From an uncultured bacterium (GTDB lineage: Bacteria > Omnitrophota > Gorgyraeia > Zapsychrales > Aceulaceae), in the NCBI GenBank assembly GCA_937930175.1, contig CALGLP010000006.1:129749-193748 (forward strand): DNA of 64,000 nt, in the 5' to 3' direction. A program made the position numbers and the translations under genes. The notes under the pieces were generated by a model, which saw only the letters and a program-made list of their open reading frames with translations, searched no databases and had not been told where the DNA came from. Positions 41,152 to 64,000 of the stretch are shown one piece after another. Position 1 is the stretch's first letter. Every line of letters begins with the position of its first letter.

Positions 41152-41153
41152 GT

Positions 41154-41889: not shown

Positions 41890-41969
41890 TCAGTGGTATA
41901 TAATATTTTTTTAATTTGAAAAGGCTCGGAGCTGTTGCTCCGAGCCTTTTATTGTTTATCCTACTCGGC

Positions 41970-42320: not shown

Positions 42321-42416
42321 TGTGTTCTCCTTTGTTTTAATAGTTAATACCACATTTCTTAACCTGCTTTAAATATAGCATATGCGTACCTTTCACGCAA
42401 TAAAACATTTATTTTT

Positions 42417-43673: not shown

Positions 43674-43674
43674 A

Positions 43675-46913: not shown

Positions 46914-46924
46914 GAGAACGTTCC

Positions 46925-47371
46925 TTAAGTCGATTGAGTTATGGTTTGATCAATGCGTATTGTAAAAAGTGTATTTAAACGCATAAGGTCAACACCATCC
47001 TTGTGAATATCAACAACTTTTGAATCCTCGATCATATCACCGATCGATACCACTTGATCATTAATAATCGCCTGAGGTCGATCGCTACTCCAAACAAGTC
47101 CGCTGAGGATCACCTTGGGAGGCTTTACCTCTTTTACGGGTTGAACGATTGTTGGCTGAACATTAGTGTCTTTGCCAGGAACTACTATATTTATTATCTT
47201 ATCTGGTTCTTGTACGATTTCAATCTTTTCTTCAACTTTTGGTAGCCATGTTTCGAAAGGGTTTCTTATGTTTAAGGTTTCTTGTAAATCAAGCAAAAGG
47301 TTTTGCGCATATCCTTGCGATGCTGATGCCAGAAGCAGGATGATGGATACTCGAATAATATTATTCTTCAT
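46925..47371 (-). CDS. PilP-like pilus assembly protein
   Basis: Signal peptide, RNPFE motif, C-terminal beta domain (VILSGLVWSSDRPQAIINDQVVSIGDMI…) typical of PilP. Gene order between pilO and pilQ. Confidence 0.55.
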   Translation of the reverse strand: MKNNIIRVSIILLLASASQGYAQNLLLDLQETLNIRNPFETWLPKVEEKIEIVQEPDKIINIVVPGKDTNVQPTIVQPVKEVKPPKVILSGLVWSSDRPQAIINDQVVSIGDMIEDSKVVDIHKDGVDLMRLNTLFTIRIDQTITQST

Positions 47372-48008
47372 GGTTTAATCTCGTTGAGCTAACGGAAATC
47401 TCCCATCCCATAGCTTCTTCTTCTTGCGCTATTGTTTTATTGCGCGCGTTTCGTTGCGACGCGCTACCAGCGCTATTTTTCCATGTATTGATACGTAAGT
47501 TTTCTTTGTTTTTTTCTAATGCTTGCATGAGTGAAAGCATGTTTGCATAGGTTGACGCGAGGGTAAAATTAATAGTTTGAATTGTGTAGTAGTTTTCTTT
47601 TTGAGAACCTGTAGGGGTATAAAAGATCACATCAACGTTGTGGGTTGCCGCAAGATTAATAATGCCTTTGATGATTTCTGTTTCGGTGGGAAAACCTTGG
47701 GGAGTTACTTTAATCAAGGCATCGAGGCGTTTTTTAGCATCTTCCAGCATGATCGCTGTTTTTTGTTTTTCTTCAAGTGCGGCCATTTCATTTTTCATCG
47801 CAGCCATTTTGTCATTGCTGACTTTCCAATAATAGTGCATACCGAAAAGAGTTGTGAGGACCAGGATGCTATTGATAAAGATATCTTTGCGATGATCAAG
47901 GGTTTCGCGAATAGATTGAACGTTGATTTGGCTCATATCAAAATCAAATTTGATTTTGCTTAAGTCTTCAATTTTTATGTTTTGCAATTTTTTAAGGATA
48001 TTATTCAT
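47361..48008 (-). CDS. PilO-like (PilN/PilO family) inner-membrane pilus alignment protein
   Basis: Single TM (ILVLTTLFGMHYYW), coiled-coil region, periplasmic domain. Start moved to MNNILKK. Confidence 0.55.
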   Translation of the reverse strand: MNNILKKLQNIKIEDLSKIKFDFDMSQINVQSIRETLDHRKDIFINSILVLTTLFGMHYYWKVSNDKMAAMKNEMAALEEKQKTAIMLEDAKKRLDALIKVTPQGFPTETEIIKGIINLAATHNVDVIFYTPTGSQKENYYTIQTINFTLASTYANMLSLMQALEKNKENLRINTWKNSAGSASQRNARNKTIAQEEEAMGWEISVSSTRLNHEE

Positions 48009-49587: not shown

Positions 49588-49589
49588 GA

Positions 49590-49766
49590 TTATTGCACTT
49601 TCCTTGATTGAGAGCGCAACCACTTATCTATTTCTTTGCGATCAAAACGCCAGACGCCGCCGATTTTGATCCCTGCGATCTTGCGTTGATTAAGCCAGTT
49701 GTAGATCGTCTGCTTTTTCAGCTTAAGATATGCAGCAAGCTCATCAACATCTAATAAGTGATCCAT
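49590..49766 (-). CDS. small excisionase-family HTH (HTH_17) protein, first gene of the pilus operon
   Basis: Not in the ORF track (58 aa): MDHLLDVDELAAYLKLKKQTIYNWLNQRKIAGIKIGGVWRFDRKEIDKWLRSQSRKVQ. Its TAA stop overlaps the pilMN ATG (ATAATCATGG). Same G.WRF.R..ID.W motif as the two HTH proteins at 12.4-13.2 kb. Confidence 0.6.
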   Translation of the reverse strand: MDHLLDVDELAAYLKLKKQTIYNWLNQRKIAGIKIGGVWRFDRKEIDKWLRSQSRKVQ

Positions 49767-50053
49767 CGCTTCCCTGTCTTTGGTATTTGTTTATTTTATA
49801 ATTTAGTTGCGTAGAGAGCTGTATTCTTATTTCAATATCATTAGAGCATAATAGAATTACTCTGTCAATAGAAAAGTTATATATAAATCTTTAAACTTAC
49901 TCACGTTTACTTTTAGTAATCTAAGAATCTTGAAGATTGGTTTCTTAAGGGCAACGCATTGCGATTAGTTGTTGAGCTCAGAGCCCAGTCTCTAAAAAAG
50001 TTTTAGAAAAAGAGATTAAAAAATTAAAGATAACCTTTCAAATTGTAGTTTAT

Positions 50054-52270
50054 TTGATAAGATTAAGTATGGTCATTGTAGGATTCCTTAAGAAGCATTT
50101 CTTTACTATCCTGGTTCTGTTTGCAGGGTTTATTAATCTACCGTTTTTCCTTAATAAAACTCCGATTTATCATGATACCCTTGCGCACTACATTGCGTTT
50201 TACAACACCTACAACTCTTTTTTCTTTCACGCGGAATTGCCTCGCTGGCTTCCCTATACAAGCTTTGGAGTCTCAAGCGATTTCTTCATCTTTCTGCCAA
50301 CTGATTATTTCTTTATGCTTGTTGGTAGCCTTCTAAAAATAATAAATGTTTTATTTTTATATAAGGCATCTTTCTTTGCAACCCAACTCATCTATCTTCT
50401 AGGAACCTATACTCTTGCAAGAGACATTTTTAAGAGTCGTTTTTCAATTTGGCTTGTTTGTCTATGTGCAGCAGGGAGCCTCATGCTAAGAGATCAGATT
50501 GGCTGGGGATTTTCCTATTTTTACTTGCTACCATGGATGCTTTTTTACTTTCGAAAACTGATTATTGATAAGAATCCTTTTCCTTTCTTCTTTTTATCGG
50601 TCATTTCGCTTCTTGGCTGTCTTCCTTATTTTACTGTTATCGTCTTTTTCCAATTTTTTGTTTTTTTTATTCTATTGTGGATCGTCAATCGGCGACAAAT
50701 TTTCTGCGGCTATAAAGCTCCCTGCAAATCTTCTGTTTTAATTAATATAATTAAGTGTCTTGGTCTCTTTGCTTTTGTCTTTGCATATTTTTATATTTTG
50801 TTCCATTCAAAAGATTTAATACAAATTCTTTCCGTAGGTCGAGATCCAGAATCTTTCGGAGTTTCCTTACAGACATTCTTGAGCTATGGTGGTCATATTG
50901 GTCTTAAGAAATTTATTTTTTTCATTACTCCTATTCATTTGGCAACTTCCTTTTCTGATCTGCATATTTATTTAGGATTAACACTTTGGATTTGCGTTGT
51001 TTATGGAATTTTTCGTAGCAAAGAACCACTATTCGCTGTTTTCTTTGTCCTTGCAGCGGTTGTTTTTCTTTTCTCGTTAGGGAGTTATTTTAGTGTCTTT
51101 TGTTATTATTTTATGCCAGGGATGAAGCTCTTTCGTCATATTGGCTTAACCGCAAATCTTTTGCGTTTTTATGTTCCCATCCTTGCAGGCTTCGGCTTGC
51201 AGGCCTTGCTCAATGATATCGCCAAGCAGAAAGATAATAATCAATCCTATCTTTTTCTATTTTTTGGCGTTTTTATGGTCGCCTTTAGCTTTTTAGTTGT
51301 CTGCCCTGGAGAAAGCTTGTTGTGGGCCGTTGCTTATCCCTGCTTGATCCTTGCGATCGTTTTATTCGCATTCTTTTTTGCGCAATTAAGAAAGACCAAA
51401 TCACCGCATTTGGGCGTTCTTCTTGTTTTATTTTGTGTTCTTGAATTGGTGGTTGCCCAATTCTTGATCGCAGAGCGTGTTCATAAGAATGCGCCTGCGC
51501 AGCCTAAATCGTTAAGCTATGTTTCTAGAAATCTTTATCAGTCCTCACGAAGCTCTAAGCCACCTTCAATCAGGGCAAAAGAACTTAAGGACTATCTTTC
51601 ATTTTTCCATCATCGTTGGGGTTGTGGCATCTATGCCTATTATTACGACTTTCTGCAGTGGGATCCGTGTGATTGCGACCTGCGTTTAGATTTTATGAAC
51701 AAATATGTCTATGATTTCTTAAAAATAACAGGAAATAAGCCGACTTTGCAAGGGTTTACCCTACCTGAGAGCTCCTTTGTCCGCAACGCTGTCGGATGCC
51801 AAACACCAAAGATTCAGCTTATTTCAAAAGTTATTTTTAGCAATGATCCGAAGACAACTCTCAAGGCTATAAAAACAAAGGACGCGATTGTTGTCGCCGG
51901 CGCATCTACTAAGCTTCAAAATACTTGGAAAAACCATGCGAAGTCTGAAGGATACATCGTTGTAAATGATTTTTCATCAAATCGGTTAAAGTTGACCGCT
52001 TTTGTTCCTGAAAGGCAGGGCGCATGGCTGTATTATAAGGACGGGTACCATCCGGATTGGACGGCCAAGATCAACAATCAACGATCAGTTGTTTATCAAG
52101 CAAACATCGCCTTTAAGGCCATTAAGCTCCCGTATGGGCTAAATAGTGTTGAATTGTCTTTTGATAATCGGAAAATGGCGTTATGTTTTTATGTGTTAAT
52201 TTTGGGAGGATTGTTGTTCACGGTGTTCATGCTAGTGAAAATATTTTCAGAGATCTTGTACCCTAATTAA
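50054..52270 (+). CDS. large polytopic membrane protein, GT-C-fold glycosyltransferase-like (GtrC/YfhO/TfpW-like)
   Basis: 738 aa. About 480 aa with at least 12 predicted TM helices, then a roughly 230-aa soluble C-terminal domain. Divergent from the pilus operon, convergent (10 bp) with the sugar operon. TTG start in the track; ATG at 50069 also possible. Confidence 0.45.
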   Translation: MIRLSMVIVGFLKKHFFTILVLFAGFINLPFFLNKTPIYHDTLAHYIAFYNTYNSFFFHAELPRWLPYTSFGVSSDFFIFLPTDYFFMLVGSLLKIINVLFLYKASFFATQLIYLLGTYTLARDIFKSRFSIWLVCLCAAGSLMLRDQIGWGFSYFYLLPWMLFYFRKLIIDKNPFPFFFLSVISLLGCLPYFTVIVFFQFFVFFILLWIVNRRQIFCGYKAPCKSSVLINIIKCLGLFAFVFAYFYILFHSKDLIQILSVGRDPESFGVSLQTFLSYGGHIGLKKFIFFITPIHLATSFSDLHIYLGLTLWICVVYGIFRSKEPLFAVFFVLAAVVFLFSLGSYFSVFCYYFMPGMKLFRHIGLTANLLRFYVPILAGFGLQALLNDIAKQKDNNQSYLFLFFGVFMVAFSFLVVCPGESLLWAVAYPCLILAIVLFAFFFAQLRKTKSPHLGVLLVLFCVLELVVAQFLIAERVHKNAPAQPKSLSYVSRNLYQSSRSSKPPSIRAKELKDYLSFFHHRWGCGIYAYYYDFLQWDPCDCDLRLDFMNKYVYDFLKITGNKPTLQGFTLPESSFVRNAVGCQTPKIQLISKVIFSNDPKTTLKAIKTKDAIVVAGASTKLQNTWKNHAKSEGYIVVNDFSSNRLKLTAFVPERQGAWLYYKDGYHPDWTAKINNQRSVVYQANIAFKAIKLPYGLNSVELSFDNRKMALCFYVLILGGLLFTVFMLVKIFSEILYPN

Positions 52271-52280
52271 GGGATGTTCT

Positions 52281-52979
52281 TTAGCCAAAGATTTTAACTT
52301 TTAGGATCGCCCATAAAGCAGGAATAACAGTATCTACGGCTTTTATGGTTTTTCCTTGTTGATGCGTCCTGGGTGTATAAGAAACGGCTTCTTCGGCAAT
52401 CTTGTATCCCGCCCGACAAAGTTTGCTCACCAATTCAACGGCAGCCGCGTGTCCATTAGAATTAAATCTTGTTGCCTTTAAAATTTTTGTTTTAATCAGA
52501 CTAGATCCTATCACATCTGTAAAATTTCGCCCATAGAATAAATTAATCAACGATGTTGCAATAATGGTTCCAAGCCAATATGGCCTTTCTTTAATTAATG
52601 TAAATATTGGAACATTTTTCCGGTCTAAAAGTCTTGAGCCAAAAACAACATCTAAGCTCTCGCGTTCCATTTTTTCCATCATTTTCTGGACATCTCTCAT
52701 GCTATACTCAAGGTCTGCGCCAAGTCCAGAGAAATACTCCCCTTTAGCCAATTCCATTCCTTCACGGCCCGAATACCCAACTCCCATATTTTTTGAGTGA
52801 AGAATTATCCTGAGGTCCTTGTCATTTTTTAATCCCTGGAGCAATTCTCTGGTGCCATCTGTTGAGCAATTGTCAATAATAATGATCTCTTTATCAATGT
52901 TGACGGCTTTAGCCTCCTCGATGGCTTTAAGAATCGTTGTTTTCTCATTGAAACACGCGATAACCATGGTAAGCTTCAT
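52281..52979 (-). CDS. family 2 glycosyltransferase, polyprenol-phosphate sugar synthase-like (GtrB/Dpm1 catalytic domain)
   Basis: MKLTMVIACFNEKTTI…IIIDNCSTDGT… GT-A motifs. Start moved to Met29 (ATGA overlap with the rfbH stop). Confidence 0.65.
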   Translation of the reverse strand: MKLTMVIACFNEKTTILKAIEEAKAVNIDKEIIIIDNCSTDGTRELLQGLKNDKDLRIILHSKNMGVGYSGREGMELAKGEYFSGLGADLEYSMRDVQKMMEKMERESLDVVFGSRLLDRKNVPIFTLIKERPYWLGTIIATSLINLFYGRNFTDVIGSSLIKTKILKATRFNSNGHAAAVELVSKLCRAGYKIAEEAVSYTPRTHQQGKTIKAVDTVIPALWAILKVKIFG

Positions 52980-54292
52980 TCTATCTCCTTTAGAAAATCG
53001 ATCAAAATCTTTTTTATGTACGACAGCATTCCTTGGGTAAGGCCAGGATAGACTCCTATCCAAAATAAATTATTCATGACAACATCTGTATTGTTCAAAT
53101 TTCTAGCCACCTTATATTTTATATTTTTGTAAGCAGGCTGTTTTAAAAGGTTACCGCCAAACAACATTCTTGTGGCAATCTTATGATCTTCAAAATAATT
53201 AACAATATCTGCCCTCTTAAAAGGCGCACTTTCTCTGACTAAGATAGGAAAACCAAACCAGCTCGGATCCGAATACTTCTCAGCTTCTGGGAGTACAAAA
53301 TAATTTCTATACTTCTTAAGCACTGCGTAAAGAAATTTGAAATTTCTCTTTCTAGCTTCAATAAATCTAGGCAATTTTTTTAGTTGAGCGCATCCGATGG
53401 CTGCTTGCATCTCCGTAATCTTTAAATTATAACCCACATGCGAATAAACGTATTTATGATCATATCCGTAAGGTAAGTCGCCAAACTTTTGGCTAAACCT
53501 TTTTTTGCATGTATCATCATCTCCTGGGTTACACCAGCAATCCCTTCCCCAGTCCCGAAAAGACAGTATTATTTTTCTTAATAGCGAATTGTTAGTCAAA
53601 ACAGCTCCACCCTCTCCCGTCGTTATGTGGTGCGAGGGATAGAAACTACAGGTCGAAATATCGCCAAAGGTTCCAGCATGCTTACCCTTGTACATTGATC
53701 CTAACGCGTCACAGTTGTCTTCAATAAACCATAGGTTATATTTTTTTGCTATTTTAGAAATTAACCCCAGATTCGCGGGATTACCCAACGTATGCGCGAT
53801 GAATATTGCTTTTGTCCTGTTGGTAAGCATCTTTTCTATCAGCTCAGCTTTAATATTATATGTTCCCAGTTTTATGTCTAAAAATACTGGTGTTAAGCGA
53901 TTTTGTAAGATTGGGTTGAGGGTGGTTGGAAAACCGCAGGCTGTGGTAATAACTTCATCTCCAGGCCTCAATCTTCTATCTTTTAACAAAGGAGAAGTCA
54001 GGCTAGAAACCGCCAAAAGATTAGCTGAAGAACCTGAATTTGTTAATAGACAATGCTTAACCCCTAAGAAACTAGCAAGGCCTTTTTCAAATTTATCGGC
54101 GTATCTGCCAGCCGTAAGCCAAAAATCCAGCGAAGCATCAACCAAGTGAATAAGCTCATCTTCGTTATAAACCCGGCCGGCATAAGGAATAGGACTCTTC
54201 CTTTCAAGAAATTGACTTTTTTTTCTTTCGGAGGCGCAATACGTTGCTACTTTTTCTAATATGTCGCGTCTTAATTTTATGCTTTTATTCAT
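52976..54292 (-). CDS. ddhC: CDP-6-deoxy-D-xylo-4-hexulose-3-dehydrase (E1; RfbH/DdhC family, DegT/AHBA-synthase fold)
   Basis: 438 aa. Length and N-terminal pattern (…LVDASLDFWLTAGRYADKFEKGLASFLGVKHCLLTNSGSSANLLAVSSLTSPLL…) match RfbH-type PMP-dependent 3-dehydrases, not ~380-aa aminotransferases. Confidence 0.7.
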   Translation of the reverse strand: MNKSIKLRRDILEKVATYCASERKKSQFLERKSPIPYAGRVYNEDELIHLVDASLDFWLTAGRYADKFEKGLASFLGVKHCLLTNSGSSANLLAVSSLTSPLLKDRRLRPGDEVITTACGFPTTLNPILQNRLTPVFLDIKLGTYNIKAELIEKMLTNRTKAIFIAHTLGNPANLGLISKIAKKYNLWFIEDNCDALGSMYKGKHAGTFGDISTCSFYPSHHITTGEGGAVLTNNSLLRKIILSFRDWGRDCWCNPGDDDTCKKRFSQKFGDLPYGYDHKYVYSHVGYNLKITEMQAAIGCAQLKKLPRFIEARKRNFKFLYAVLKKYRNYFVLPEAEKYSDPSWFGFPILVRESAPFKRADIVNYFEDHKIATRMLFGGNLLKQPAYKNIKYKVARNLNNTDVVMNNLFWIGVYPGLTQGMLSYIKKILIDFLKEIE

Positions 54293-54332
54293 TAATTCTC
54301 GCTATTTAGATCGCAGACATGCAGCCCACACC

Positions 54333-54779
54333 TTAAGCCTTAAATATGTTTTTGTTCCCAAAGGAAAGATGTCTATGTCCAAGATAGTTGAAAGGAGTGG
54401 CTATAACGATACACAAACATTGTGCCAGGATCGGATACAAGCCTAAAAGACTGACCAATAGATACATGAGTACAAAACCAAGCACAGCGCTCCCACTGTA
54501 AACCAAATAACAGCGAAAATATTCTTTGAGATAATTCCCCTTTGTTCTAAAAACAACAAACTTATAGCCAAGATATGCGTTGGTAATAGCTAAAATATTA
54601 GCCGGAATCAATAATAGCAGATAGTTAACACGGGCATGCAGCAACTTGTATAAAATAGCATAAGCTCCTATCCCAAACAATGTGTTCCAGCCGCCAATGA
54701 GCATATAGCGCATCATCCGGCGAATCTCTTTATCGTGTTTTTTATATTTCTCCACTAGCTGAACACCTATTGCGTGCAT
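54333..54779 (-). CDS. GtrA-family membrane protein (polyprenol-phosphate-sugar flippase-like)
   Basis: About 130 aa, 4 TM helices, YMLIGGWNTLFGIGAYAIL…ATPFNYLGHRHLSF GtrA signature. Confidence 0.65.
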   Translation of the reverse strand: MHAIGVQLVEKYKKHDKEIRRMMRYMLIGGWNTLFGIGAYAILYKLLHARVNYLLLLIPANILAITNAYLGYKFVVFRTKGNYLKEYFRCYLVYSGSAVLGFVLMYLLVSLLGLYPILAQCLCIVIATPFNYLGHRHLSFGNKNIFKA

Positions 54780-54848
54780 ATGTCGTATCCGTTCAAATTA
54801 ATTTCTACTTTTTATCCTCAGGGACAAGCATATTGTTTTAAAGAAATA

Positions 54849-55982
54849 CTAAATTATTTCTAATCCGAAATCTCGCAATATCGCAACCTTTGTATTACTA
54901 AAACTCTGCTGTATTATCCCAACCACCTCATCGGAATAACTAGCTGCCATAACAACAACCGCATCAACCGGATCTGATCTAAGAGTGTTAGGTGTTACGA
55001 TCGGTAAATGCGTAGCCGGAGTGTATTTGCCTTGCTTGAAAGGCGCTGAATCGATGACGTATCTGATTTTGTCTGCAATTCTTGTCAAGGCAATGATGGC
55101 TAAGGCCTGATGGCCAGCGCCCCAGATGGCAACACTTTTTTCCTTGAAATGGCTAAGAAACTCATTGATTTCAGATTCAATTTTGATTTGATAATCATAA
55201 AAGTGCATTATGTCGAGCTTTCCTCTTTTTTTTACAACAACGGAAATAACATAATCATCCCGTGTCTGGCTGAAGTCAATGATGTCAAATCCATTAATAG
55301 ACAAAGTTGTCTGTAGCGTTTCTTTGGTAAAGTACAGCAGATGATCGCTAATGAATTCTGAGAAAAGGTTTTTTCGTAATATCATGTCAAAATTCGGCAC
55401 TTCAATTAAGCCTACGGCATCTTCAGTCAAGTTATTATAAATTCCTTTGAGCGCATGATTTGGCGCAGGTATATGCTCCAAAAACATCAATAAAAGAAAG
55501 GCGTCAAAAGGACCCTGATCCAGTTTCTTAGAATTGCTATCGAGATATTCTTTTGATACATTCAGCCCATCTTTCACACACTGCTTAACTGAAAGTTCTG
55601 AATACTCCAATCCGTAAGCCTTGACGTCAAGCGGCTGCAGCAAGGAAAGAAATTCCCCTTTTCCGCATCCGATCTCGATAATCTTTTTCCCCTTTAATGA
55701 ATATTTCTCAATAAAGTTGGCGAATTGTTTGGTTTTAAAATCTTTGATAATTTCCGAAACAGCTGCGGCCCGAATAACCTCTCGGTAATACGAAACAGGA
55801 TCATCACTTAGCTGCACTAAGCCACATCCTGAACATTGACAAACGGTTAAATTGACGCCTGTTTCGTTTTTCAAAGAATTTGCGTCAGGGAAATGTTGAG
55901 CAGCTTTCGGCATGTTTTTGTAGACGAGCAGTGGTTTATTAAAAAATTCTCGACCACAAACTCTGCAAATCGAAATTGACAT
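54849..55982 (-). CDS. NDP-hexose C-methyltransferase (TylCIII-like; zinc-ribbon + SAM MTase + C-methyltransferase C-terminal domain)
   Basis: N-terminal Cys4 zinc ribbon (CRVCG…CQCSGCG), SAM motif IIEIGCGKGEF, and C-terminal Rossmann-like domain (VAIWGAGHQA…YVIDSAPFKQGKYTPATHLPIV…) as in sugar 3-C-methyltransferases. Confidence 0.65.
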   Translation of the reverse strand: MSISICRVCGREFFNKPLLVYKNMPKAAQHFPDANSLKNETGVNLTVCQCSGCGLVQLSDDPVSYYREVIRAAAVSEIIKDFKTKQFANFIEKYSLKGKKIIEIGCGKGEFLSLLQPLDVKAYGLEYSELSVKQCVKDGLNVSKEYLDSNSKKLDQGPFDAFLLLMFLEHIPAPNHALKGIYNNLTEDAVGLIEVPNFDMILRKNLFSEFISDHLLYFTKETLQTTLSINGFDIIDFSQTRDDYVISVVVKKRGKLDIMHFYDYQIKIESEINEFLSHFKEKSVAIWGAGHQALAIIALTRIADKIRYVIDSAPFKQGKYTPATHLPIVTPNTLRSDPVDAVVVMAASYSDEVVGIIQQSFSNTKVAILRDFGLEII

Positions 55983-56001
55983 TAATCGTTCCTATATTTT
56001 T

Positions 56002-57021
56002 TTATCGTAATCTTTCAATTGGAAATCCGTCAATATTGTCTCTGGTGTAATAATCGTTACGATAAATATTACATCTTAAGCATGAATAATTCTCGTGTTT
56101 TCTATCCTTTAGTTGCAATTTTTGGAATTCAAGCCATTGCCTTGAATTCCATATCTGTTGCAAGCTCATATCATCAACGTTTCCCAGATTTGTGCCACCA
56201 ATAAAATCTACACAGCAGGGAGAAACATCACCGTTACTTCGAACCGCCATTGTCGTAAAAGCCATAGGGCATGCAACTCTTTGAGTACTATGTTTCTTTG
56301 AATCATCAAGGGCTTTAATTATGTCGTCTTTGTAATAATCTTTTATAAAATCTACTCCATCTACCTTGATCCAGTTATGTGGTTTTTCAATGTAGACTTC
56401 ATCGGCTACATCGCTATACATTTCCATGAAGGCATCGTTATCTGAGTTATACGCATCAAGCATCTTTGCGGCAACAAAAGGGCTTTTGCTATTAGCACAT
56501 TTTTTTATAGCCTGCAAGGTTTTTAAATTTTCATGTATTTTGTGTATATCGAACTTTGTGCCGGTAATTTCCTCATGCTTATCTTGATAAGGCGAATATA
56601 TCGAGACCCTAATATAATCGAGTTGATACTCAACAAGTTTTTCTGCTACTTTTTCAGTAAGCAGTGAGGCATTTGTTGTCGTTTCAATTCTTTCAGCAAT
56701 GTTTGCCTCCCTTGCCATTTCCAGCATCTCACAGAAATCCGGATTAAGTAAAGGTTCCCCGTACAAGCTGAGCTTTAATACTTTAAGTTTTTTCTCATTC
56801 CAACTTTTTAATTGTTCAATCACCTTTACATAGGTATCAAACGGCATATGTTGACGATTTTCTGTAAAATAATTCTCTTCCTTCAGGCTCTGGAAACACT
56901 GGACGCATTTAAAATTGCATAAACTCGATGGCTCAATCAGCACCGTAAACGGTTTAGATAGCGGTAATACATTTCTGAGATTTTGCCGTTTAGTTGATTT
57001 TAGCTCAGTATATTTGATCAT
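56002..57021 (-). CDS. radical SAM / SPASM-domain enzyme
   Basis: CxxxCxxC (CNFKCVQC) cluster, LYGEPLL and TTN motifs, C-terminal Cys-rich SPASM region (CPMAF…SPCCVDF…CLRC). Confidence 0.75.
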   Translation of the reverse strand: MIKYTELKSTKRQNLRNVLPLSKPFTVLIEPSSLCNFKCVQCFQSLKEENYFTENRQHMPFDTYVKVIEQLKSWNEKKLKVLKLSLYGEPLLNPDFCEMLEMAREANIAERIETTTNASLLTEKVAEKLVEYQLDYIRVSIYSPYQDKHEEITGTKFDIHKIHENLKTLQAIKKCANSKSPFVAAKMLDAYNSDNDAFMEMYSDVADEVYIEKPHNWIKVDGVDFIKDYYKDDIIKALDDSKKHSTQRVACPMAFTTMAVRSNGDVSPCCVDFIGGTNLGNVDDMSLQQIWNSRQWLEFQKLQLKDRKHENYSCLRCNIYRNDYYTRDNIDGFPIERLR

Positions 57022-58067
57022 CTAATAAAATCTTCTTTGTCAAATGCTTCAGTCCAATGAATAGGTAGCGGTTTGCGATAAGTTTTGGACATATATTTAT
57101 TAATAAAATTACGATCTTCTCCAGAAAGGCACAAGCTGCTGTATTCTTGAAAACATTTAATGCTCTGTCCGCGTTTGATGATGTTGGCCAGGCTTTCCTT
57201 AAAAATACTACCGATGGATATAGGGATATATACGCACGGTGTTACATCACCATACTGAGTGATGTGCAATGTCGAATCAACACAACCACAACCTTTGTTC
57301 ATGCCGTAAGACGGGAAAGTGTCGCGATGTAATACAGGATACTGATCATGGGCCTTGCGGAGAAATTCTGCGTCTTCCTTATCGATTAACACTTCATGTT
57401 TCCCTTCCCATGCTCCAGTGGCCCGAGCAATTAACACGTCAATCGTAAAGTCATTCTTCTGAGCGAATTCGGCCATCTGTATTAAGCGATCCGTCTGACA
57501 GTTTTGATGGGTAACAACCGTTTGGACCACCACGCTCAAGCCCGCCTTTTTGGCGTTGAACATGGCATCCATCGCTTTTTGATAGGCTCCGCTGCTGTTG
57601 CGATTTTCGTTATGCCGTTTTTCGTCAAAATCATCCAAACTAATTTTGAGCTTATCCATGCCCATTGCCTTTAAGTGTCTAGCGGCTTTTTTGCTCAAAA
57701 AATGACCATTGGTGCTCATCGTCATGTGGAACTTGTGTGGTTGCAGAGCCAGGATTACCCCATCTAGGTCTTCAAAGATTAATGGTTCTCCGCCAGAGAT
57801 ACAAAACTGACAAAGGCCGAGAGAATGGGCCTCATCGCTAAGTTTTTTCAGGTCAGGTGGGGTTAGTTTTCGTCCTTTTTTTGCAAAACGAGCGGCTGTG
57901 CAGTGCTGACACTTCAGATTGCAAGCATAGCTATAAGCAATATCGATGATCGGTGTGGCAATCCCCTTTTGGTGACGCTCGATAATTTTTATTATCTTGT
58001 CGTAGACCGCAGGTTTTTCCTGTCGCAATTTTTCTCGCTTAGCGTCTTCAATCTCTTTTTCTTGCAC
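57018..58067 (-). CDS. radical SAM / SPASM-domain enzyme (paralog of the upstream gene)
   Basis: CNLKCQHC radical-SAM cluster, SGGEPLI and STNG motifs, C-terminal CGCVD…TPCVY…CLSG SPASM cysteines. 4-bp overlap with the preceding gene. Confidence 0.75.
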   Translation of the reverse strand: MQEKEIEDAKREKLRQEKPAVYDKIIKIIERHQKGIATPIIDIAYSYACNLKCQHCTAARFAKKGRKLTPPDLKKLSDEAHSLGLCQFCISGGEPLIFEDLDGVILALQPHKFHMTMSTNGHFLSKKAARHLKAMGMDKLKISLDDFDEKRHNENRNSSGAYQKAMDAMFNAKKAGLSVVVQTVVTHQNCQTDRLIQMAEFAQKNDFTIDVLIARATGAWEGKHEVLIDKEDAEFLRKAHDQYPVLHRDTFPSYGMNKGCGCVDSTLHITQYGDVTPCVYIPISIGSIFKESLANIIKRGQSIKCFQEYSSLCLSGEDRNFINKYMSKTYRKPLPIHWTEAFDKEDFIR

Positions 58068-58088
58068 AGATCGCCTTTCTAGAATTTT

Positions 58089-59210
58089 TTAAAGAACTGC
58101 ATAACATACAGTTTCATATTCCAGTTTTGTATGATGCCTTAAATAAATTTTATATTCCGGGACCAATTCTTTTATATAAAGCGGGATTTCCCATAAATGT
58201 TTAAAATCATGATAAACGCATATAGCTAGCTTAGGTTTTTGAGTCTTAATAATGCTTTTAGATCCTTTCAGCGCTTGCAGCTCTGCTCCTTCAATATCCA
58301 TTTTAATAAACGTAACTTTTTCATTTTTCAACATCTCATCAAGTGGAACCACATGGCCGCGGGCTTCACCTTCACCAATAGTGCTTTGGGACTGGCTAAT
58401 ACTATAAGCGATGTCGCTTTCACGATCCCATAATCCTAGTTCAAAGATTCTGATCCGGTCGCAATTAGGCATATTTTTTACATTATCGTTCAATAAGCGA
58501 AAGTTGATTGAATTAACCTCAAAGGAGAAAATATTCTCAAATTTTCCGTTTACACGCTTAATAAAATCTTTAACCGTATCCCCATTAAAAGCTCCAACGT
58601 CAATAAAGCTTTCATGATCGGATAGCTTGATTATATTTGCAGGAAAGTACTGATTTTTCTCACAAACATCTGCCATGACGCCAATATCTTCTCCATTGCT
58701 CAAAACTCGATTAACAATAGCATGAAAAACTTTTTTAGATTGTTCATCTGATAAAATCTTGCAAGCTTGGCATAGTTTATCTCCAATTTCTAAGCAATTC
58801 TGATCTAGAAGGAAATTAGAGGTAATAAGATCGTACTTATAGATTTGATTAACCAATGGAAATCCACTTTCGATCAAGTTCTTAAAAACTGGTTCAAAAT
58901 CGCCAATCGTAATAAAGACAGCGCTCCTATTCTTTATTTTTACTAATTCTTGAAAAGAAAGGCATTTTGTACCACAAAAATACTTCCCCCATTTGACGCT
59001 GTCGCTATCGCAGCAATAATCGACTTTTCGCCCAACATATGCATTCCAAGTGTCAACAATACTATTGAAAATTGCGCCGCAACCATAAAACACGATATAA
59101 TCGTAATGTTTTACTAAGTCTTTAATTTCCTGCCGATAGTTTCTTTTTCTTTTTAACAATTCAGCAAAATGGTCGCGTAGTTGTGAATGATCATGCAGCA
59201 TTGTCATCAT
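58089..59210 (-). CDS. FkbM-family methyltransferase with N-terminal extension domain
   Basis: C-terminal FIDVGAFNGDT…FIKMDIEGAE FkbM signature. About 150-aa N-terminal domain of unknown function. Confidence 0.7.
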   Translation of the reverse strand: MMTMLHDHSQLRDHFAELLKRKRNYRQEIKDLVKHYDYIVFYGCGAIFNSIVDTWNAYVGRKVDYCCDSDSVKWGKYFCGTKCLSFQELVKIKNRSAVFITIGDFEPVFKNLIESGFPLVNQIYKYDLITSNFLLDQNCLEIGDKLCQACKILSDEQSKKVFHAIVNRVLSNGEDIGVMADVCEKNQYFPANIIKLSDHESFIDVGAFNGDTVKDFIKRVNGKFENIFSFEVNSINFRLLNDNVKNMPNCDRIRIFELGLWDRESDIAYSISQSQSTIGEGEARGHVVPLDEMLKNEKVTFIKMDIEGAELQALKGSKSIIKTQKPKLAICVYHDFKHLWEIPLYIKELVPEYKIYLRHHTKLEYETVCYAVL

Positions 59211-59673
59211 TCTCCTGATTTTTCACAATCCATTCCAGTAACTCCCAGACACATCCTTCGCCCCCGCGAGCGGAGAGCTTGATTGCTGCAAGCTCTCTGA
59301 CTTCCGAGCTGGCATTTGACGGACAAGCCGAAAATTTCACCGCCTTCATAACATCGACATCGTGCTTAGAATCGCCCAAATAGCAGATAGCATCAGCGCT
59401 CAATCCGGTTTTATCAATGATTTTCTGTAACGCTAGAATTTTATTTTTACACCCGTTATAGAAAAAATCCGGTTTGAAACGTTCTTTGAAAACTAATGTG
59501 ATAGGAGTGTTTTCACCGGTTATTAAGCCAACCAAGAGCTTTTGCCTTTTCATTTCAAATATTGCGTCGATATCTTTAAAGTTAATGGTTTTATATTCAT
59601 TCCCATGGGAGTCTATTGTAGCTTTGCCATCAGTTAATACCCCATCAATATCAAGCAAGATGAGCTTTATCAT
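59191..59673 (-). CDS. HAD-IIIA phosphatase, KdsC-like (3-deoxy-ulosonate phosphate phosphatase family)
   Basis: 160 aa. LILLDIDGVLTDGK motif I and GDSKHD(V)D motif, as in KdsC / KDN-9-P phosphatases. Confidence 0.7.
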   Translation of the reverse strand: MIKLILLDIDGVLTDGKATIDSHGNEYKTINFKDIDAIFEMKRQKLLVGLITGENTPITLVFKERFKPDFFYNGCKNKILALQKIIDKTGLSADAICYLGDSKHDVDVMKAVKFSACPSNASSEVRELAAIKLSARGGEGCVWELLEWIVKNQENDDNAA

Positions 59674-61463
59674 GGTTTTTTTCCTTTGATGATCATATTC
59701 TGCTCAAGCTCTTGAGCTGAAAGATATGGCCACATATCCTCGAGCGGCTTGGAAATCATATTGCCATCAGGTAGTTTCATGGCTTGAACTTTTGGCGCAG
59801 TAATATGGAACTCAGAAACCTTAATGCTGCATAACACAGGGTCGTCTCCATCGAGAGTTTTTGCAATAGTTGTTTTTAATTCTTTATGATTAGTTGCTTG
59901 TTCGTGACGAATACCATAGGCTTGAGCTATCGCTTGTAAATTTGGTAACGTGAGTCCACTGCTTGGCTCTGAACCTACATAAAAACCATTAAACATATTT
60001 TTTTGTGTCGTCATAATGCTGCCATAGCCATTGTTTTCAAGAATAAACATTTTGATCGGCAGTTTCAATCTTACCACAGTTTCTAGCTCTTGAATGTTTA
60101 ATTGAAAAGCGCCATCTCCATTGATGAGAATGGTGCGCTTTCGTTGCTGTGAGATACAAGCGCCGATTGCATAAGGCAGGCCAAATCCCATGGCGCCAAG
60201 GCCAGCGGCATTTCTAATCTTCTGTCCTTTTTTAACGCAAGCGGCTTGATAGGTAACTTCACCAGCCGCTCCAGAACTTTCAGGCGTTATAATATCATCA
60301 GCAGTCAGTTGCTGGAAAAGCATTTCTGTAAAAACGTATAAATTAATATTTTCATCGGAATTGCGATATTCGTCTAAGACCACCGGATACCGTTTCTTAA
60401 GCTGCTGACAATAAGATAACCAGTCGCTGTGGTCAGGTGATTTAATATCTACTTGTTGTTCACACAGTGAGCGCAAGAAGTGACCAGCATCTGCGACAAT
60501 AGGAAGATCGATATGTGCGATTTTATGGATTTCAGCTTCGTCGATATCAACCATGATCTTTTTCGCATTTTTACCAAAGTTCGCGCTGTTGAAGGCGGTG
60601 ATACTAGGGTCAAGGCGACTTCCTAAGATGATCAAAAGATCGCAATTTTGTACGATGAAATTTGCATAGCGACATCCCATGATGCCAGGGCTACCAAAAT
60701 TCAAAGGATGGTTAGAATCTAAGAAATCTATTGTTTTCCAGGTGAGCACCATTGGAATTTGATGCTTTTCCGCAAAGCAGCTCAAGGCTTCTTCTGCCTC
60801 AGCCAGCTTGACCCCGTTTCCCACCAGAATAAGTGGTCGCTTTGCATGATTCAAGAGGTTGATAATTTCGGTTATGGAGAGAGGCGCTGGATCAATAAGC
60901 TCGTTATGCTTATTGGAAAATCCCTGTAACCCTGTTTCGTCAATCATTGTCGCTTGGACATCAAGAGGAATGTCTAGCCACACTGGCCCCATCCTCCCGC
61001 TTGTTGCCAAATGCCAAGCCTTTTCCAAGTGATAGCGAATGTCATTGGGATCTAAGACAGTAATCGCGTATTTCGTGATACACGATATCATGGCAACGAT
61101 ATCAACTTCTTGAGATCCTTTTTGGCGGATACCACTGTTACCTTTAAGATCTGAACGTTTTGCTTGGCCGGAGATAAATATGCAAGGAGTTGAATCAATG
61201 TAAGCCGCTGCCACGCCGGTAATGGTATTGGTGCTCCCCGGGCCTGAGGTAACTAACCCTACCCCTGGAAAACTCGTGAATTGGCCATAGCTTTCTGCTG
61301 CAATGGCGAGCGCTTGTTCATGAAGAAAGCAGGTATATTCCAAGTCCTTGCATCGACCAAGAGAATCATCCAGGTGCATGGCCCCGCCACCGGGTAACAT
61401 AAAAACATGGCGAACTCCCCTGGCAACCAAGAAATTCATTACATAATCTGAAAGTTTTATCAT
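59670..61463 (-). CDS. thiamine-pyrophosphate-dependent acetolactate-synthase-family enzyme (YerE-like sugar C-branching enzyme candidate)
   Basis: 597 aa. Three-domain TPP enzyme (N-terminal PYR domain …MLPGGG…, central domain, C-terminal TPP-binding GDGAFQ…NN motif). Located inside a deoxysugar operon. Confidence 0.6.
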   Translation of the reverse strand: MIKLSDYVMNFLVARGVRHVFMLPGGGAMHLDDSLGRCKDLEYTCFLHEQALAIAAESYGQFTSFPGVGLVTSGPGSTNTITGVAAAYIDSTPCIFISGQAKRSDLKGNSGIRQKGSQEVDIVAMISCITKYAITVLDPNDIRYHLEKAWHLATSGRMGPVWLDIPLDVQATMIDETGLQGFSNKHNELIDPAPLSITEIINLLNHAKRPLILVGNGVKLAEAEEALSCFAEKHQIPMVLTWKTIDFLDSNHPLNFGSPGIMGCRYANFIVQNCDLLIILGSRLDPSITAFNSANFGKNAKKIMVDIDEAEIHKIAHIDLPIVADAGHFLRSLCEQQVDIKSPDHSDWLSYCQQLKKRYPVVLDEYRNSDENINLYVFTEMLFQQLTADDIITPESSGAAGEVTYQAACVKKGQKIRNAAGLGAMGFGLPYAIGACISQQRKRTILINGDGAFQLNIQELETVVRLKLPIKMFILENNGYGSIMTTQKNMFNGFYVGSEPSSGLTLPNLQAIAQAYGIRHEQATNHKELKTTIAKTLDGDDPVLCSIKVSEFHITAPKVQAMKLPDGNMISKPLEDMWPYLSAQELEQNMIIKGKKP

Positions 61464-61504
61464 GAGTAACTTTCTTAACCCATTTTAAGGAAATACCGAA
61501 TAGA

Positions 61505-62374
61505 TTATTTATTCACCCGACGTAGTTTCTTTAAGACCGGGATTTCTCTCTCGTAAACGCGTTTAATCCCATCCCCCAGAGAAGACTCTATCAAGCGAAT
61601 ATCGCGCACAAGGATCTCAAATCCGTGAGCGCCTAAAGATGCGGCTTGATCAGACCCCCACATGGAGCGATCAAGGGTAATGTGCCGCTCAATCATGCAA
61701 GCCCCTAGTGATGTGGCGGCCACAGACGTGGCGATGCCCGTTTCATGCCCGGAATACCCAATAGGGACTTTATAGCGATCTTTCAAAGTTTTAATGACCC
61801 GTAGATTTAACTCATCATAATTTGCTGGGTATGTGCTTGTCGTGTGTAAAATGATTAGATTTTCTTTGCCTAAAATCTCCACCGCATGATCAATTTGTTC
61901 AATTATGCTCATGCCCGTAGACAATATGATGGGTTTTTTCTTTGTTCGGTGGTAGCGAAGCAGGTCGTCATCGGTCAGAGTCGCCGAGGCGATCTTGTAG
62001 CAAGGCACGTCAAATTGGTCGATAAAATCAATGGATTTTTCATCCCAGCAGGAGGCAAACCAAGGTATTTTTTTTTCTTGGCAATAGCGATCGATCTCCT
62101 GATAGTCTTCCAGTTCCAGCTCCAAACCATATTTTAAATCACCATTTGTAGGACCGAAATAGTTTTCTCGGGGGAGACTTAACTCTTCAGCCGTATACAC
62201 TTGGTCGATGGTACGTTTTTGAAATTTAACAGCATTGCATCCGGCTTTGATTGCGGCATCGATGAGGTTCTTAGCTATCGCAACATCACCATTGTGGTTA
62301 ATGCCTATTTCGGCGACAATGTAACAGGGATGATTGTCGCCTACGAGGGTATTGCCTATCTTTACCTCTGCCAT
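61505..62374 (-). CDS. NeuB-family PEP-dependent sugar aldolase (N-acetylneuraminate/KDN-9-P synthase-like, no SAF domain)
   Basis: 289 aa. IVAEIGINHNGD…KFQ… TIM-barrel NeuB motifs. Lacks the C-terminal antifreeze-like domain. Confidence 0.7.
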   Translation of the reverse strand: MAEVKIGNTLVGDNHPCYIVAEIGINHNGDVAIAKNLIDAAIKAGCNAVKFQKRTIDQVYTAEELSLPRENYFGPTNGDLKYGLELELEDYQEIDRYCQEKKIPWFASCWDEKSIDFIDQFDVPCYKIASATLTDDDLLRYHRTKKKPIILSTGMSIIEQIDHAVEILGKENLIILHTTSTYPANYDELNLRVIKTLKDRYKVPIGYSGHETGIATSVAATSLGACMIERHITLDRSMWGSDQAASLGAHGFEILVRDIRLIESSLGDGIKRVYEREIPVLKKLRRVNK

Positions 62375-62404
62375 TTCTTCTCCTTTTTCAGGTTAGTAGA
62401 AAAT

Positions 62405-63460
62405 TTATCTAGCAACATCATCTTGGGAGCGATAAAAATCTGTCATCTTTCGGATGCCATCTTGCAGGCTAATCCATTGACGCAAACCTAATTCTTTCTC
62501 TGCCAAGCGGGTATCCGGAACATAGCGTTCAACAGGACAGCGCTTGTTTCTTATTTTATTTTGAATTCTTATTTCTATTTTCGGAGAAAAAGTTTTTGCC
62601 ACTAAATTTGCTAAGGTCAAGATCGAACAAGCTTTAGATGACCCAACATTGTATGGCTTATTCGGCTTTCCTAAAAGTAAAATGGTCCAAAGCCAGATCA
62701 TAAGATCAGCCGAATATAGATATGCGCGATAAACAGGTTTGTCGCTTTTTACGTTGATCGGCCCACCTATCAAGGCGTCTCTTACGAAATTCCCGGCGGC
62801 AAAATTAATGTTTAACGGTAATTTGGGTCCTAAGAAAGCGAAACACCTTGCTATTTTAACATTGATACCGAATTCTTGGGCATAATTTGTACAATAAAAT
62901 TCAGAAGCTCTTTTGCTCTTGGCATATGCTGAATGACCATGACGGATGAGCGGAGATCCTTGATAATGCTCTGGGATGCGCAACATGGCAGAGGGTTGCT
63001 TTCCATAAACAGCACCGGAGCTAATGAAAAGAAAGGCATCATTCTGACTGACTTTGGCAAAATCAAGGACTCTTTGTGTGCCGAGTATGTTATTGTTAAA
63101 CAAATCCAATGAAGACGAAGAAGGATTGTTATCTGTTGCCGCATGAACGATGTAGTGATGCTGTCCTTTGGGGAATCGAAAAGAGCGCATATCCCCTTTC
63201 AGAAAGTTTACAGATTTAATTTTATAAAAATGAGGATTATTTCTTTTAAAACGCTCAGGATTTCGTGATAATACAATCGCAGAAGAGTTAAGCTTGAGGC
63301 GTTCGTTGATCCAGACAAAGCTCTCGAGCAACCATGACCCAAAGAATCCAGTCCCGCCTGTAATAAAAAATTTCTTTTTATAAACATTTTTAAATAAAAT
63401 GCGCGTTTTGTTTAGTATGTGATCGAGATCTTCTTGAGGTAGGCTCATGGAATTACGCAT
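62405..63460 (-). CDS. NAD-dependent epimerase/dehydratase-family SDR (candidate NDP-sugar 4-ketoreductase/epimerase)
   Basis: 351 aa. TGGTGFFGSW Rossmann motif, extended SDR. Confidence 0.65.
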   Translation of the reverse strand: MRNSMSLPQEDLDHILNKTRILFKNVYKKKFFITGGTGFFGSWLLESFVWINERLKLNSSAIVLSRNPERFKRNNPHFYKIKSVNFLKGDMRSFRFPKGQHHYIVHAATDNNPSSSSLDLFNNNILGTQRVLDFAKVSQNDAFLFISSGAVYGKQPSAMLRIPEHYQGSPLIRHGHSAYAKSKRASEFYCTNYAQEFGINVKIARCFAFLGPKLPLNINFAAGNFVRDALIGGPINVKSDKPVYRAYLYSADLMIWLWTILLLGKPNKPYNVGSSKACSILTLANLVAKTFSPKIEIRIQNKIRNKRCPVERYVPDTRLAEKELGLRQWISLQDGIRKMTDFYRSQDDVAR

Positions 63461-64000
63461 TGCTCTTAGAAAAATAAGTAAGGTACCACGGGAGAGTCTT
63501 TTTTAGGCCATCGCGTAGATTATAAGTTGGCTTCCATCCTAGAATGCGGTGGGCTTTTGCTGCAGAAAGAGACTGTTCTTTTATTTCATAACGTGCCTTA
63601 TTGAGAATCCTGTAGTTTGGTTTTTTGTCCATAAAACGATAAATCATATTGACTATATCAATAACTGTTTTAGGTCTTTCATTACTCAAATTAAAGGCCT
63701 CCCCTGCGAGGCTTAGAGATTTTAATTTTTCTGCGACAAGAATATACCCCGCAACAACATCATCTATAAAGATATAGTCACGGGTAAATTTGCCGTTACT
63801 GCGAATGAGGAGTGTTTCTTTTTTGTGCGCGCAGCGGATTGTTTCTGGAACGATTCGTGAGAAATGAAAATCGCCGGGGCCGTAGATGTTGCCACATCTG
63901 GTGACAGCTACCGGTAAGCGATAGGTATGGAAATAGGTCTGTGCGATTAAATCGGCACAACTTTTAGAAACATCATAAGGATGGTTGGCGAGCAGCGGCG
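63453..64000 (-). CDS. ddhB: CDP-glucose 4,6-dehydratase-like (DdhB/RfbG), C-terminal part; gene continues past the window end
   Basis: Continuous reading frame to position 64000 (…PYDVSKSCADLIAQTYFHTYRLPVAVTRCGNIYGPGD…). YxxxK active site and pattern match CDP-glucose 4,6-dehydratases. 8-bp overlap with the downstream SDR. Confidence 0.6.
   Translation of the reverse strand, partial: PLLANHPYDVSKSCADLIAQTYFHTYRLPVAVTRCGNIYGPGDFHFSRIVPETIRCAHKKETLLIRSNGKFTRDYIFIDDVVAGYILVAEKLKSLSLAGEAFNLSNERPKTVIDIVNMIYRFMDKKPNYRILNKARYEIKEQSLSAAKAHRILGWKPTYNLRDGLKKTLPWYLTYFSKSNA

Follow-up and report, generated by a model that had tools for sequence, protein, structure and literature searches.

Acyl-branched sugars have been brought under a unifying scheme in which a keto acid is supplied to a YerE-like enzyme, followed by the action of a YerF-like reductase (Steitz et al. 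2022, PMC9306805). The described pathways lead to erwiniose in Pectobacterium atrosepticum (ErwE/F/I/J), caryophyllose in Mycobacterium marinum (MMAR_2331-2333) and gastriose (MyGE/MygI/MygF) (PMC9306805). The donors of ErwE, MMAR_2332 and MyGE are C4-C8 hydroxy-keto acids formed by aldolases, and their acceptor is cytidine diphosphate (CDP)-4-keto-3,6-dideoxyglucose (PMC9306805; reviewed in PMC12247030). Here we describe an operon from an uncultured Omnitrophota bacterium in which genes for this acceptor stand beside genes resembling those for ulosonic acids. The stretch analyzed, referred to as the window, is 64,000 nucleotides of contig CALGLP010000006.1 (GCA_937930175.1), and the operon runs through its last 12 kb and just past its end. 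On balance we consider it probable, judging from homology and gene context, that the operon directs the attachment of a keto acid resembling sialic acid to a CDP-3,6-dideoxyhexose. The product would be a very large C4-acyl-branched sugar, delivered by way of a lipid carrier.

Two further groups of known systems bear on the locus. The octulosonic acid KDO (3-deoxy-D-manno-octulosonic acid) is made by the KdsD-KdsA-KdsC-KdsB route, and Bacteroides thetaiotaomicron has a synthase and a phosphatase for the 9-phosphate of KDN (2-keto-3-deoxy-D-glycero-D-galacto-nononic acid). Three-component extracytoplasmic glycosylation systems are represented by CsbB/GtcA/YfhO, GtrABC and PpgS/Rv3632.

Proposed pathway

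In the proposed pathway a glucose-1-phosphate cytidylyltransferase would form CDP-glucose, which a divergent 4,6-dehydratase would convert to CDP-4-keto-6-deoxyglucose. The E1/RfbH dehydrase, together with an electron donor from outside the cluster, would then yield CDP-4-keto-3,6-dideoxyglucose, the acceptor. For the donor, a short NeuB-type synthase is predicted to join phosphoenolpyruvate (PEP) to an aldose phosphate, and a KdsC-like phosphatase to strip the terminal phosphate, leaving a free 3-deoxy-2-ulosonic acid of approximately 8-10 carbons. A thiamine diphosphate (ThDP)-dependent enzyme would decarboxylate this keto acid, and the acyl-anion equivalent would attack the C4 ketone of the acceptor in chemistry of the YerE/ErwE type, so that a tertiary alcohol carrying a long polyhydroxylated branch is formed. 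A short-chain dehydrogenase/reductase (SDR) may subsequently reduce the branch ketone in a YerF-like role, while a TylC3-type enzyme would add a C-methyl group, an FkbM-family enzyme an O-methyl group, and two radical S-adenosylmethionine (SAM)/SPASM enzymes would remodel the sugar. Finally, a family 2 glycosyltransferase (GT2) would load the sugar onto polyprenyl phosphate, in partnership with a GtrA-family protein or by way of it, and a YfhO-like protein could pass the sugar to an acceptor outside the cytoplasm.

The initial annotation had presented the operon as a hybrid of 3,6-dideoxyhexose, C-branching, C-methylation and nonulosonate-type chemistry. All of these parts are present and that interpretation is supported. 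However, the set makes better sense as a single coherent pathway, with the NeuB-type and KdsC-like enzymes supplying the donor for the ThDP enzyme.

Conservation of the gene set

A profile made from an alignment of the ThDP enzyme family was used to scan one genome per species, and the 80 loci obtained were then searched with all window proteins. Counts were taken over the 54 full-flank loci, i.e. those that extend for 8 kb or more to both sides, and phylum names are the submitters' labels. The gene set recurs across approximately 13 phylum labels (Omnitrophota, Lentisphaerota, Planctomycetota, Verrucomicrobiota, Elusimicrobiota, Nitrospirota, Desulfobacterota, Acidobacteriota, Actinomycetota, Fibrobacterota, Synergistota, Bacteroidota and Bacillota). 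Largely the same gene order is found in metagenome-assembled genomes (MAGs) labelled Omnitrophota, Lentisphaeria, Planctomycetales, Geobacter, Fibrobacterota, Holophagales and others. In Gram-negative phyla the genes are usually arranged as ddhA, ddhB, rfbH, SDR, NeuB, haloacid dehalogenase (HAD)-type phosphatase, ThDP enzyme, FkbM, radical SAM 1, radical SAM 2, (GT2) and C-methyltransferase.

The co-occurrence counts (Table 1) indicate that the parts travel together, the tightest unit being the trio of NeuB, HAD phosphatase and ThDP enzyme genes. The first two both adjoin the ThDP enzyme gene in 50 of the 54 loci. A mosaic of unrelated pathways, which the initial annotation had allowed for, is rejected on the strength of this trio and of the RfbH gene, which always occurs with the cytidylyltransferase gene.

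Genes of other kinds were observed at two related loci. In locus L084 (positions 3155-5195 and 18240-20873) genes of small nuclease-like and toxin-antitoxin types (23S_rRNA_IVP, PDDEXK_3, DUF559 and PhdYeFM/YoeB) lie within and beside an otherwise intact cassette. Upstream of the trio in L055, where the phosphatase is fused to a SIS domain, there is a gene with a Cas12f1-like TNB domain of the TnpB type (4844-6181).

The predicted acceptor sugar

The initial annotation had pointed to a possible ddhA gene beyond position 64000, and the public contig that continues the window does carry a glucose-1-phosphate cytidylyltransferase gene there. Its product scores 415 bits with the equivalog model TIGR02623 (cut-off 300). 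The next protein, the 4,6-dehydratase, finds its top model in TIGR02622 (CDP-glucose 4,6-dehydratase) with 210.7 bits over the full protein (cut-off 278), compared with 197 bits for the dTDP-type dehydratase model. It contains a YDVSK motif and the sequence SSDKAYG, which resembles TSDKCYEN in the canonical CDP-type enzymes that sister loci encode. At the same positions the sister loci encode canonical CDP-glucose 4,6-dehydratases (435-482 bits) and RfbH (695 bits).

The 438-aa protein scores 709.6 bits with the equivalog NF011936 (cut-off 423) and aligns with the E1 enzyme of Y. pseudotuberculosis (PDB 3BCX) at 556 bits, gap-free across 423 residues. Its scores are at most 201 bits against ColD and at most 163 bits against other DegT-family entries, including aminotransferases. 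The protein retains His221 (within SFYPSHH) and Cys194, Cys252, Cys254 and Cys262, so that the Fe-S pattern C-X57-C-X-C-X7-C is present. We take it that His220 of E1 replaces the Lys that binds pyridoxal phosphate, and that the four cysteines are the Fe-S ligands. By these scores and residues the protein is a true E1/RfbH dehydrase (CDP-6-deoxy-L-threo-D-glycero-4-hexulose 3-dehydrase), as the initial annotation had proposed. An aminotransferase or a ColD-like enzyme is ruled out by the difference in scores, by the retained histidine and by the equivalog match.

The ThDP-dependent carboligase

The ThDP enzyme has HEQ at residues 48-50, which includes the catalytic Glu, and GDGAFQ...NN at residue 449. 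It falls under every cut-off for acetohydroxyacid synthase (AHAS), the best AHAS model being TIGR00118 with 377 bits (cut-off 538). Among solved structures the best match is JanthE (PDB 8RPH, 364 bits), followed by PpYerE (5AHK, 285 bits) and AHAS (at most 236 bits). The alignment with JanthE covers residues 2-591, end to end and including the C-terminal tail. Identity is 34.4% to JanthE and 32.6% to PpYerE. A benchmark tblastn search of plasmids with the protein returned only genuine ilvB/ilvG genes, at 31-34% identity. The comparison set consisted of JanthE, PpYerE, AHAS and plasmid ilvB/ilvG. Within the family itself, identity across phyla is 50-81%.

No small regulatory subunit with an ACT domain is encoded in the operon, and no ilv genes are annotated nearby in the window or on the contig upstream. 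A genuine AHAS, the other possibility raised by the initial annotation, is rejected given the scores below all cut-offs, this absence of a small subunit and ilv neighbors, and the conservation of the gene set across phyla. The gene shares its operon with ddhA, the ddhB-like gene and ddhC, i.e. with the genes for CDP-4-keto-3,6-dideoxyglucose. We read the protein as a candidate YerE-like C4-branching enzyme.

The predicted keto acid donor

The short NeuB-type protein matches PF03102 with 264 bits but has no C-terminal SAF (antifreeze-like) domain. It is below the equivalog cut-offs of both the NeuB model (258 bits, cut-off 400) and the PseI model (211 bits, cut-off 340). The metal- and PEP-binding motifs KFQ, GYSGHE and IERH are kept in alignments with 6NCS and 8H2C. 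The best 120 homologues are all 287-300 aa in length and contain PF03102 only. The best model for the HAD phosphatase is NF058599 (KDN-9-P phosphatase), with 120.5 bits (cut-off 180); TIGR01670 gives 103.5 bits (cut-off 106.95), and the nucleophile motif DIDGV is present.

A fusion of the KdsC-like phosphatase with a GmhA-like SIS_2 isomerase is encoded in 37 related loci, mainly from Lachnospiraceae and other Bacillota (for example L052:8933-9991), and the fusion gene sits between the NeuB and ThDP enzyme genes. In L084 the GmhA-like isomerase is encoded by a separate gene within an otherwise identical cassette. A ketose-phosphate isomerase, a PEP-dependent synthase and a phosphatase together follow the logic of KdsD-KdsA-KdsC.

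Chloroflexota loci without the ThDP enzyme gene encode a NeuB protein 70-72% identical to that of the window, together with the HAD phosphatase, a SIS_2 isomerase and a CTP_transf_3 enzyme; this cytidine monophosphate (CMP)-transferase is in one case fused to the HAD phosphatase. Since the module there feeds a CMP-transferase, it would supply a free 3-deoxy-2-ulosonic acid. We infer that the consumer of this acid is either a CMP-transferase or, in the window, the ThDP enzyme. No CMP-ulosonate synthetase is found among the Pfam- and NCBIfam-annotated genes of the window cluster, and there is a single glycosyltransferase. Synthesis of a CMP-activated nonulosonate by the NeuB/KdsC pair inside the operon is rejected on these two grounds.

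Two loci from Anaerolineales/Chloroflexota MAGs (L085:1245-14740 and L086:8660-18903) constitute a distinct and apparently uncharacterized CMP-ulosonic-acid locus. They contain three NeuB paralogues (one with SAF), a CTP_transf_3-HAD fusion, SIS_2, AP_endonuc_2, GFO_IDH_MocA and adh_short.

Tailoring and delivery genes

The SDR encoded between the 4,6-dehydratase and the NeuB-type protein matches no NCBIfam equivalog, and its best PDB match is a UDP-glucuronate decarboxylase (88 bits). We regard it as a candidate YerF-like reductase of the branch ketone. The FkbM-family protein (TIGR01444, 61.5 bits, cut-off 37.7) probably carries out an O-methylation.

Radical SAM enzyme 1 contains a CNLKCQHC motif, matches no equivalog and has weak PDB matches to MoaA, SkfB and BlsE. 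Enzyme 2 contains CNFKCVQC; its auxiliary-cluster domain matches BtrN and anSME, and its core weakly matches DesII. The gene for enzyme 2 is found in 21 of the 24 full-flank loci with enzyme 1. The C-methyltransferase has the N-terminal Zn-binding, SAM and C-terminal Methyltransf_14 domains of TylC3/TcaB9 (Methyltransf_14, 56 bits at the C-terminus; Methyltransf_23, 56 bits; Methyltransf_13, a weak 21.8 bits). Its best PDB matches are TcaB9, mycarose 3-C-methyltransferase and 5T64, described as a 'sugar 3-C-methyl transferase'. The gene is confined to loci that also have the radical SAM pair (15/15).

The open reading frame (ORF) of the GT2 begins at position 53063. However, the likely start is Met29, which gives a protein of 232 aa as in the public record. 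The initial annotation had called this protein GtrB-like; membership of the GT2 family is confirmed, but the GtrB-type C-terminal membrane part is missing, and the best NCBIfam matches are AglJ, PpgS and a dolichyl-phosphate hexose transferase, all below cut-off. The protein is probably a polyprenyl-phosphate glycosyltransferase, and the GtrA-family protein would serve it as a membrane partner or else act as a flippase. The product of the convergent gene that follows matches Pfam YfhO (PF09586) at 23 bits (cut-off 28.5) over its C-terminal part only. A search of 5.8 billion proteins found only five homologues, two of which (25-28% identity, 95-97% coverage) carry PF09586. We consider it a candidate divergent transferase of the GT-C type. 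Together, the GT2, GtrA-family and YfhO-like proteins look like a three-component extracytoplasmic glycosylation system.

Alternative interpretations

Several observations weigh against the pathway proposed above. The window 4,6-dehydratase is below its equivalog cut-off. An E3 reductase of the AscD/DdhD type, which the initial annotation had suggested looking for upstream, was not detected in the window or in 83 loci by a crude scan for ferredoxin and ferredoxin-NADP reductase motifs. It is possible that the electron donor for E1/RfbH is encoded outside the cluster, and a housekeeping donor, such as serves some other E1-like enzymes, is an option. With identities of 31-34% in both cases, the ThDP enzyme stands about as far from genuine AHAS as from the two YerE-like enzymes of solved structure, and PpYerE (276-285 bits) scores no better than Bacillus IlvB (275-279 bits). 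Because of this score, and because identity to JanthE is 34%, membership of the YerE-like group is not settled by sequence alone. PDB searches with both radical SAM enzymes gave matches too weak for a reaction to be assigned. Finally, both the cytidylyltransferase and the RfbH gene are missing within 10 kb in 20 of the 54 loci. In one of these 20, from Butyrivibrio sp. JL13D10, three Maf/MptE-like genes (L067:28-4617) lie just upstream of a cassette in the order NeuB-HAD/SIS-ThDP enzyme-FkbM-radical SAM-C-methyltransferase, with no CDP-hexose genes within 10 kb. Maf-type transferases are a family of flagellin glycosyltransferases that normally use CMP-ulosonic acids.

One alternative is that the operon makes two sugars. 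The ThDP enzyme would then be a classical YerE, with pyruvate as the source of an acetyl branch of two carbons, as in yersiniose, while the NeuB-type synthase and the phosphatase would produce an ulosonic acid for a CMP-transferase encoded elsewhere. YerE prefers pyruvate, JanthE accepts it and ErwE rejects it. The short NeuB/HAD/SIS module does feed a CMP-transferase in the Chloroflexota loci. However, the adjacency of the NeuB, HAD and ThDP enzyme genes (50/54) is more constant than the link between the ThDP enzyme and RfbH genes (22/54), and in the window cluster a CMP-transferase is lacking and the GT2 is the sole glycosyltransferase. We consider two separate sugars unlikely.

The ThDP enzyme could instead act on the ulosonic acid alone, either by using it as an acceptor with pyruvate in the manner of AHAS or by decarboxylating it to a 2-deoxy-aldose, with the CDP-3,6-dideoxyhexose an independent component of the same glycan. 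Enzymes of the AHAS family naturally use 2-keto acids as acceptors, and the loci without CDP-hexose genes, as well as the Maf-type neighbors in Butyrivibrio, are in keeping with such a role. This too seems improbable, since the window cluster has no kinase or nucleotidyltransferase to activate such a product and no isomeroreductase or dehydratase to process an acetohydroxy acid, and since the SDR and C-methyltransferase are of nucleotide-sugar types.

The top NCBIfam matches of the ThDP enzyme are acetolactate synthase models such as TIGR00118, but a chance juxtaposition of a branched-chain amino-acid acetolactate synthase gene with a polysaccharide locus is extremely improbable for the reasons given above against a genuine AHAS.

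Operon limits and neighboring genes

The initial annotation had listed twelve co-directional genes, and this gene set holds. On the minus strand of positions 52281-64000 there are eleven ORFs in full and a twelfth that the window end truncates, and every family named was recovered by Pfam and NCBIfam (Table 1). Over 14,331 bp the window matches the public contig L001 (GCA_036722365.1) with 100% identity, and the contig extends upstream. There ExbB/ExbD and tetratricopeptide repeat genes precede the cytidylyltransferase gene, so the operon starts with ddhA. It is an operon of 13 genes, the first gene and a half of which lie just past the window end. Neighboring genes overlap by 4-20 nt or stand 19-41 nt apart with one exception, a gap of 69 nt between the C-methyltransferase and GtrA genes (54780-54848), so the earlier statement that no gap or overlap exceeds 45 bp was slightly off. 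A scan for promoters and terminators found terminator-like sites at background level and none in the intergenic gaps, and nothing that argues against a single transcription unit.

Table 1. Genes of the operon, in order of transcription, and the convergent gene that follows. Positions refer to the window or, where marked L001, to the public contig; the last column gives occurrence among the 54 full-flank loci.
Gene product	Length (aa)	Position	Strand	Domains and remarks	Loci
Glucose-1-phosphate cytidylyltransferase (ddhA)	260	L001:6249-7031		TIGR02623; precedes the cut SDR	34/54
4,6-dehydratase-type SDR, complete	327	L001:7028-8011			
4,6-dehydratase-type SDR, part in window	C-terminal 181 of 327	63453-64000	-	Remainder beyond window end	
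Extended SDR, nucleotide-sugar type		62405-63460	-	Pfam Epimerase, GDP_Man_Dehyd	
Short NeuB-type PEP-dependent ulosonate synthase	289	61505-62374	-	Pfam NeuB	51/54
ThDP-dependent carboligase, acetolactate-synthase superfamily	597	59670-61463	-	Three Pfam TPP domains	
KdsC/KDN-9-P-phosphatase-like HAD phosphatase	160	59191-59673	-	NF058599 and TIGR01670 matches	50/54 (50/50 also with NeuB)
FkbM-family methyltransferase		58089-59210	-	Pfam Methyltransf_21, TIGR01444	
Radical SAM/SPASM enzyme 1		57018-58067	-	Pfam Radical_SAM, SPASM	24/54
Radical SAM/SPASM enzyme 2		56002-57021	-	Pfam Radical_SAM, SPASM	21/54
TylC3/TcaB9-type NDP-sugar C-methyltransferase		54849-55982	-	Pfam Methyltransf_14, Methyltransf_23, weak Methyltransf_13	15/54 (only where radical SAM 1 is present)
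GtrA/DPMS-TM small membrane protein		54333-54779	-	Pfam GtrA_DPMS_TM, 66 bits	
E1/RfbH/DdhC 3-dehydrase	438	52976-54292	-	NF011936	22/54 within 10 kb (22/22 also with cytidylyltransferase)
Soluble-type GT2	232	52281-52979	-	Pfam Glycos_transf_2	
Divergent YfhO-like polytopic membrane protein	738	50054-52270	+	Convergent; outside the twelve genes first listed	

The G+C content is 0.37-0.40 at 50-60 kb and 0.40-0.465 in the remaining window. The GC skew is negative at 50-62 kb, whereas flanking genes that are also on the minus strand have positive skew. From these shifts, the segment at 50001-62000 may have been horizontally acquired or inverted.

A small HTH_17 (excisionase-type) gene at approximately 49670-49766 (L001:21698-21794) lies between the YfhO-like gene and a set of type IV pilus/type II secretion system-like genes. 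The latter occupy positions 39573-49623 on the minus strand, directly downstream, and comprise a PilM-like gene, a secretin, an MshE/PilB-type ATPase, a PilC/T2SS-F gene and two pilin-like genes. There is no evidence linking this set to the sugar.

Implications

If the proposed pathway is correct, it extends the 2022 acyl-branched scheme by a PEP-dependent route of ulosonate donor supply and predicts some of the largest monosaccharides yet proposed. The trait would be widespread, reaching beyond a few Proteobacteria and mycobacteria to many uncultivated carriers and also to anaerobes of the mammalian gut. A clade of ThDP carboligases predicted to take polyhydroxylated sugar acids would be of interest for the biocatalytic synthesis of tertiary alcohols. 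The two sugar-pathway radical SAM enzymes offer experimental handles, and the glycan could be isolated from cultured carriers such as Agathobaculum sp. Marseille-P7918, Butyrivibrio sp. JL13D10, Eubacterium plexicaudatum ASF492 and Victivallis vadensis.

More tentatively, we suggest that the products might form a class of 'ulosonate-branched' sugars of approximately 13-15 carbons, in which a C8-C10 acid resembling KDO or KDN is joined at C4 of the CDP-3,6-dideoxyhexose. Remodelling by the radical SAM enzymes could then involve new C-C bonds or ring closure, as seen in caryose and bradyrhizose, and such sugars might be displayed on the cell surface in over ten phyla, with gut Lachnospiraceae and Lentisphaerota among the bearers.

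Comparison with known systems

The locus shares the grouping of GT2, GtrA-family and YfhO-like genes with CsbB/GtcA/YfhO, GtrABC and PpgS/Rv3632. However, the GT2 lacks the GtrB membrane helices, the YfhO match is weak, and the E1 gene stands between those for GtrA and the GT2. With the KDO and KDN routes it has in common an isomerase (in the related loci), a PEP-dependent condensation and a subsequent C0-type HAD phosphatase. It differs from them in having no CMP-transferase, an apparent ThDP-dependent consumer, and a short NeuB without SAF that passes no equivalog.

The yersiniose A pathway of Yersinia pseudotuberculosis O:VI (DdhA-D/AscA-D, YerE and YerF) resembles the operon in DdhA, the DdhB-like dehydratase, DdhC/E1, a ThDP enzyme of the acetolactate synthase family and an SDR. 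The window cluster departs from it in a divergent dehydratase, in a donor that is probably something other than pyruvate and in many extra tailoring genes, and no E3/DdhD was found. Like the window enzyme, JanthE from Janthinobacterium sp. HH01 has a C-terminal PLED tail and a PK motif near the active-site cleft (PMC12188165). Its ThDP motif is CDG, whereas the window enzyme has the canonical GDG. The two are only 34% identical, and JanthE itself has no known physiological substrates.

The closest parallels are the erwiniose, caryophyllose and gastriose clusters. As in those, a single cluster combines the acceptor genes with genes for the synthesis of a functionalized 2-keto acid, for a ThDP carboligase and for a reductase of the SDR family, and a 3,6-dideoxyhexose bearing a long hydroxylated branch at C4 is predicted. 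The likeness is one of gene content. The known pathways obtain their donor from class-II pyruvate aldolases (BphI or HpcH/citrate-lyase type), whereas the window cluster has a NeuB-type PEP synthase and a KdsC-type phosphatase, with a GmhA-like isomerase in its relatives, and adds two radical SAM enzymes and a C-methyltransferase. A NeuB-type donor route points to a precursor that is a phosphorylated sugar, and the branch is then probably longer, at C7-C9. The initial annotation had stated that no characterized pathway was known to have this combination of genes, and a literature search for rfbH, neuB, acetolactate synthase and radical SAM genes together found no relevant paper. However, the novelty is narrower than was claimed because the logic of feeding a keto acid to a YerE-like enzyme had already been published (PMC9306805). 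The points of difference from the published scheme are the PEP-dependent donor route, the likely length of the branch, and the radical SAM/C-methyltransferase module.

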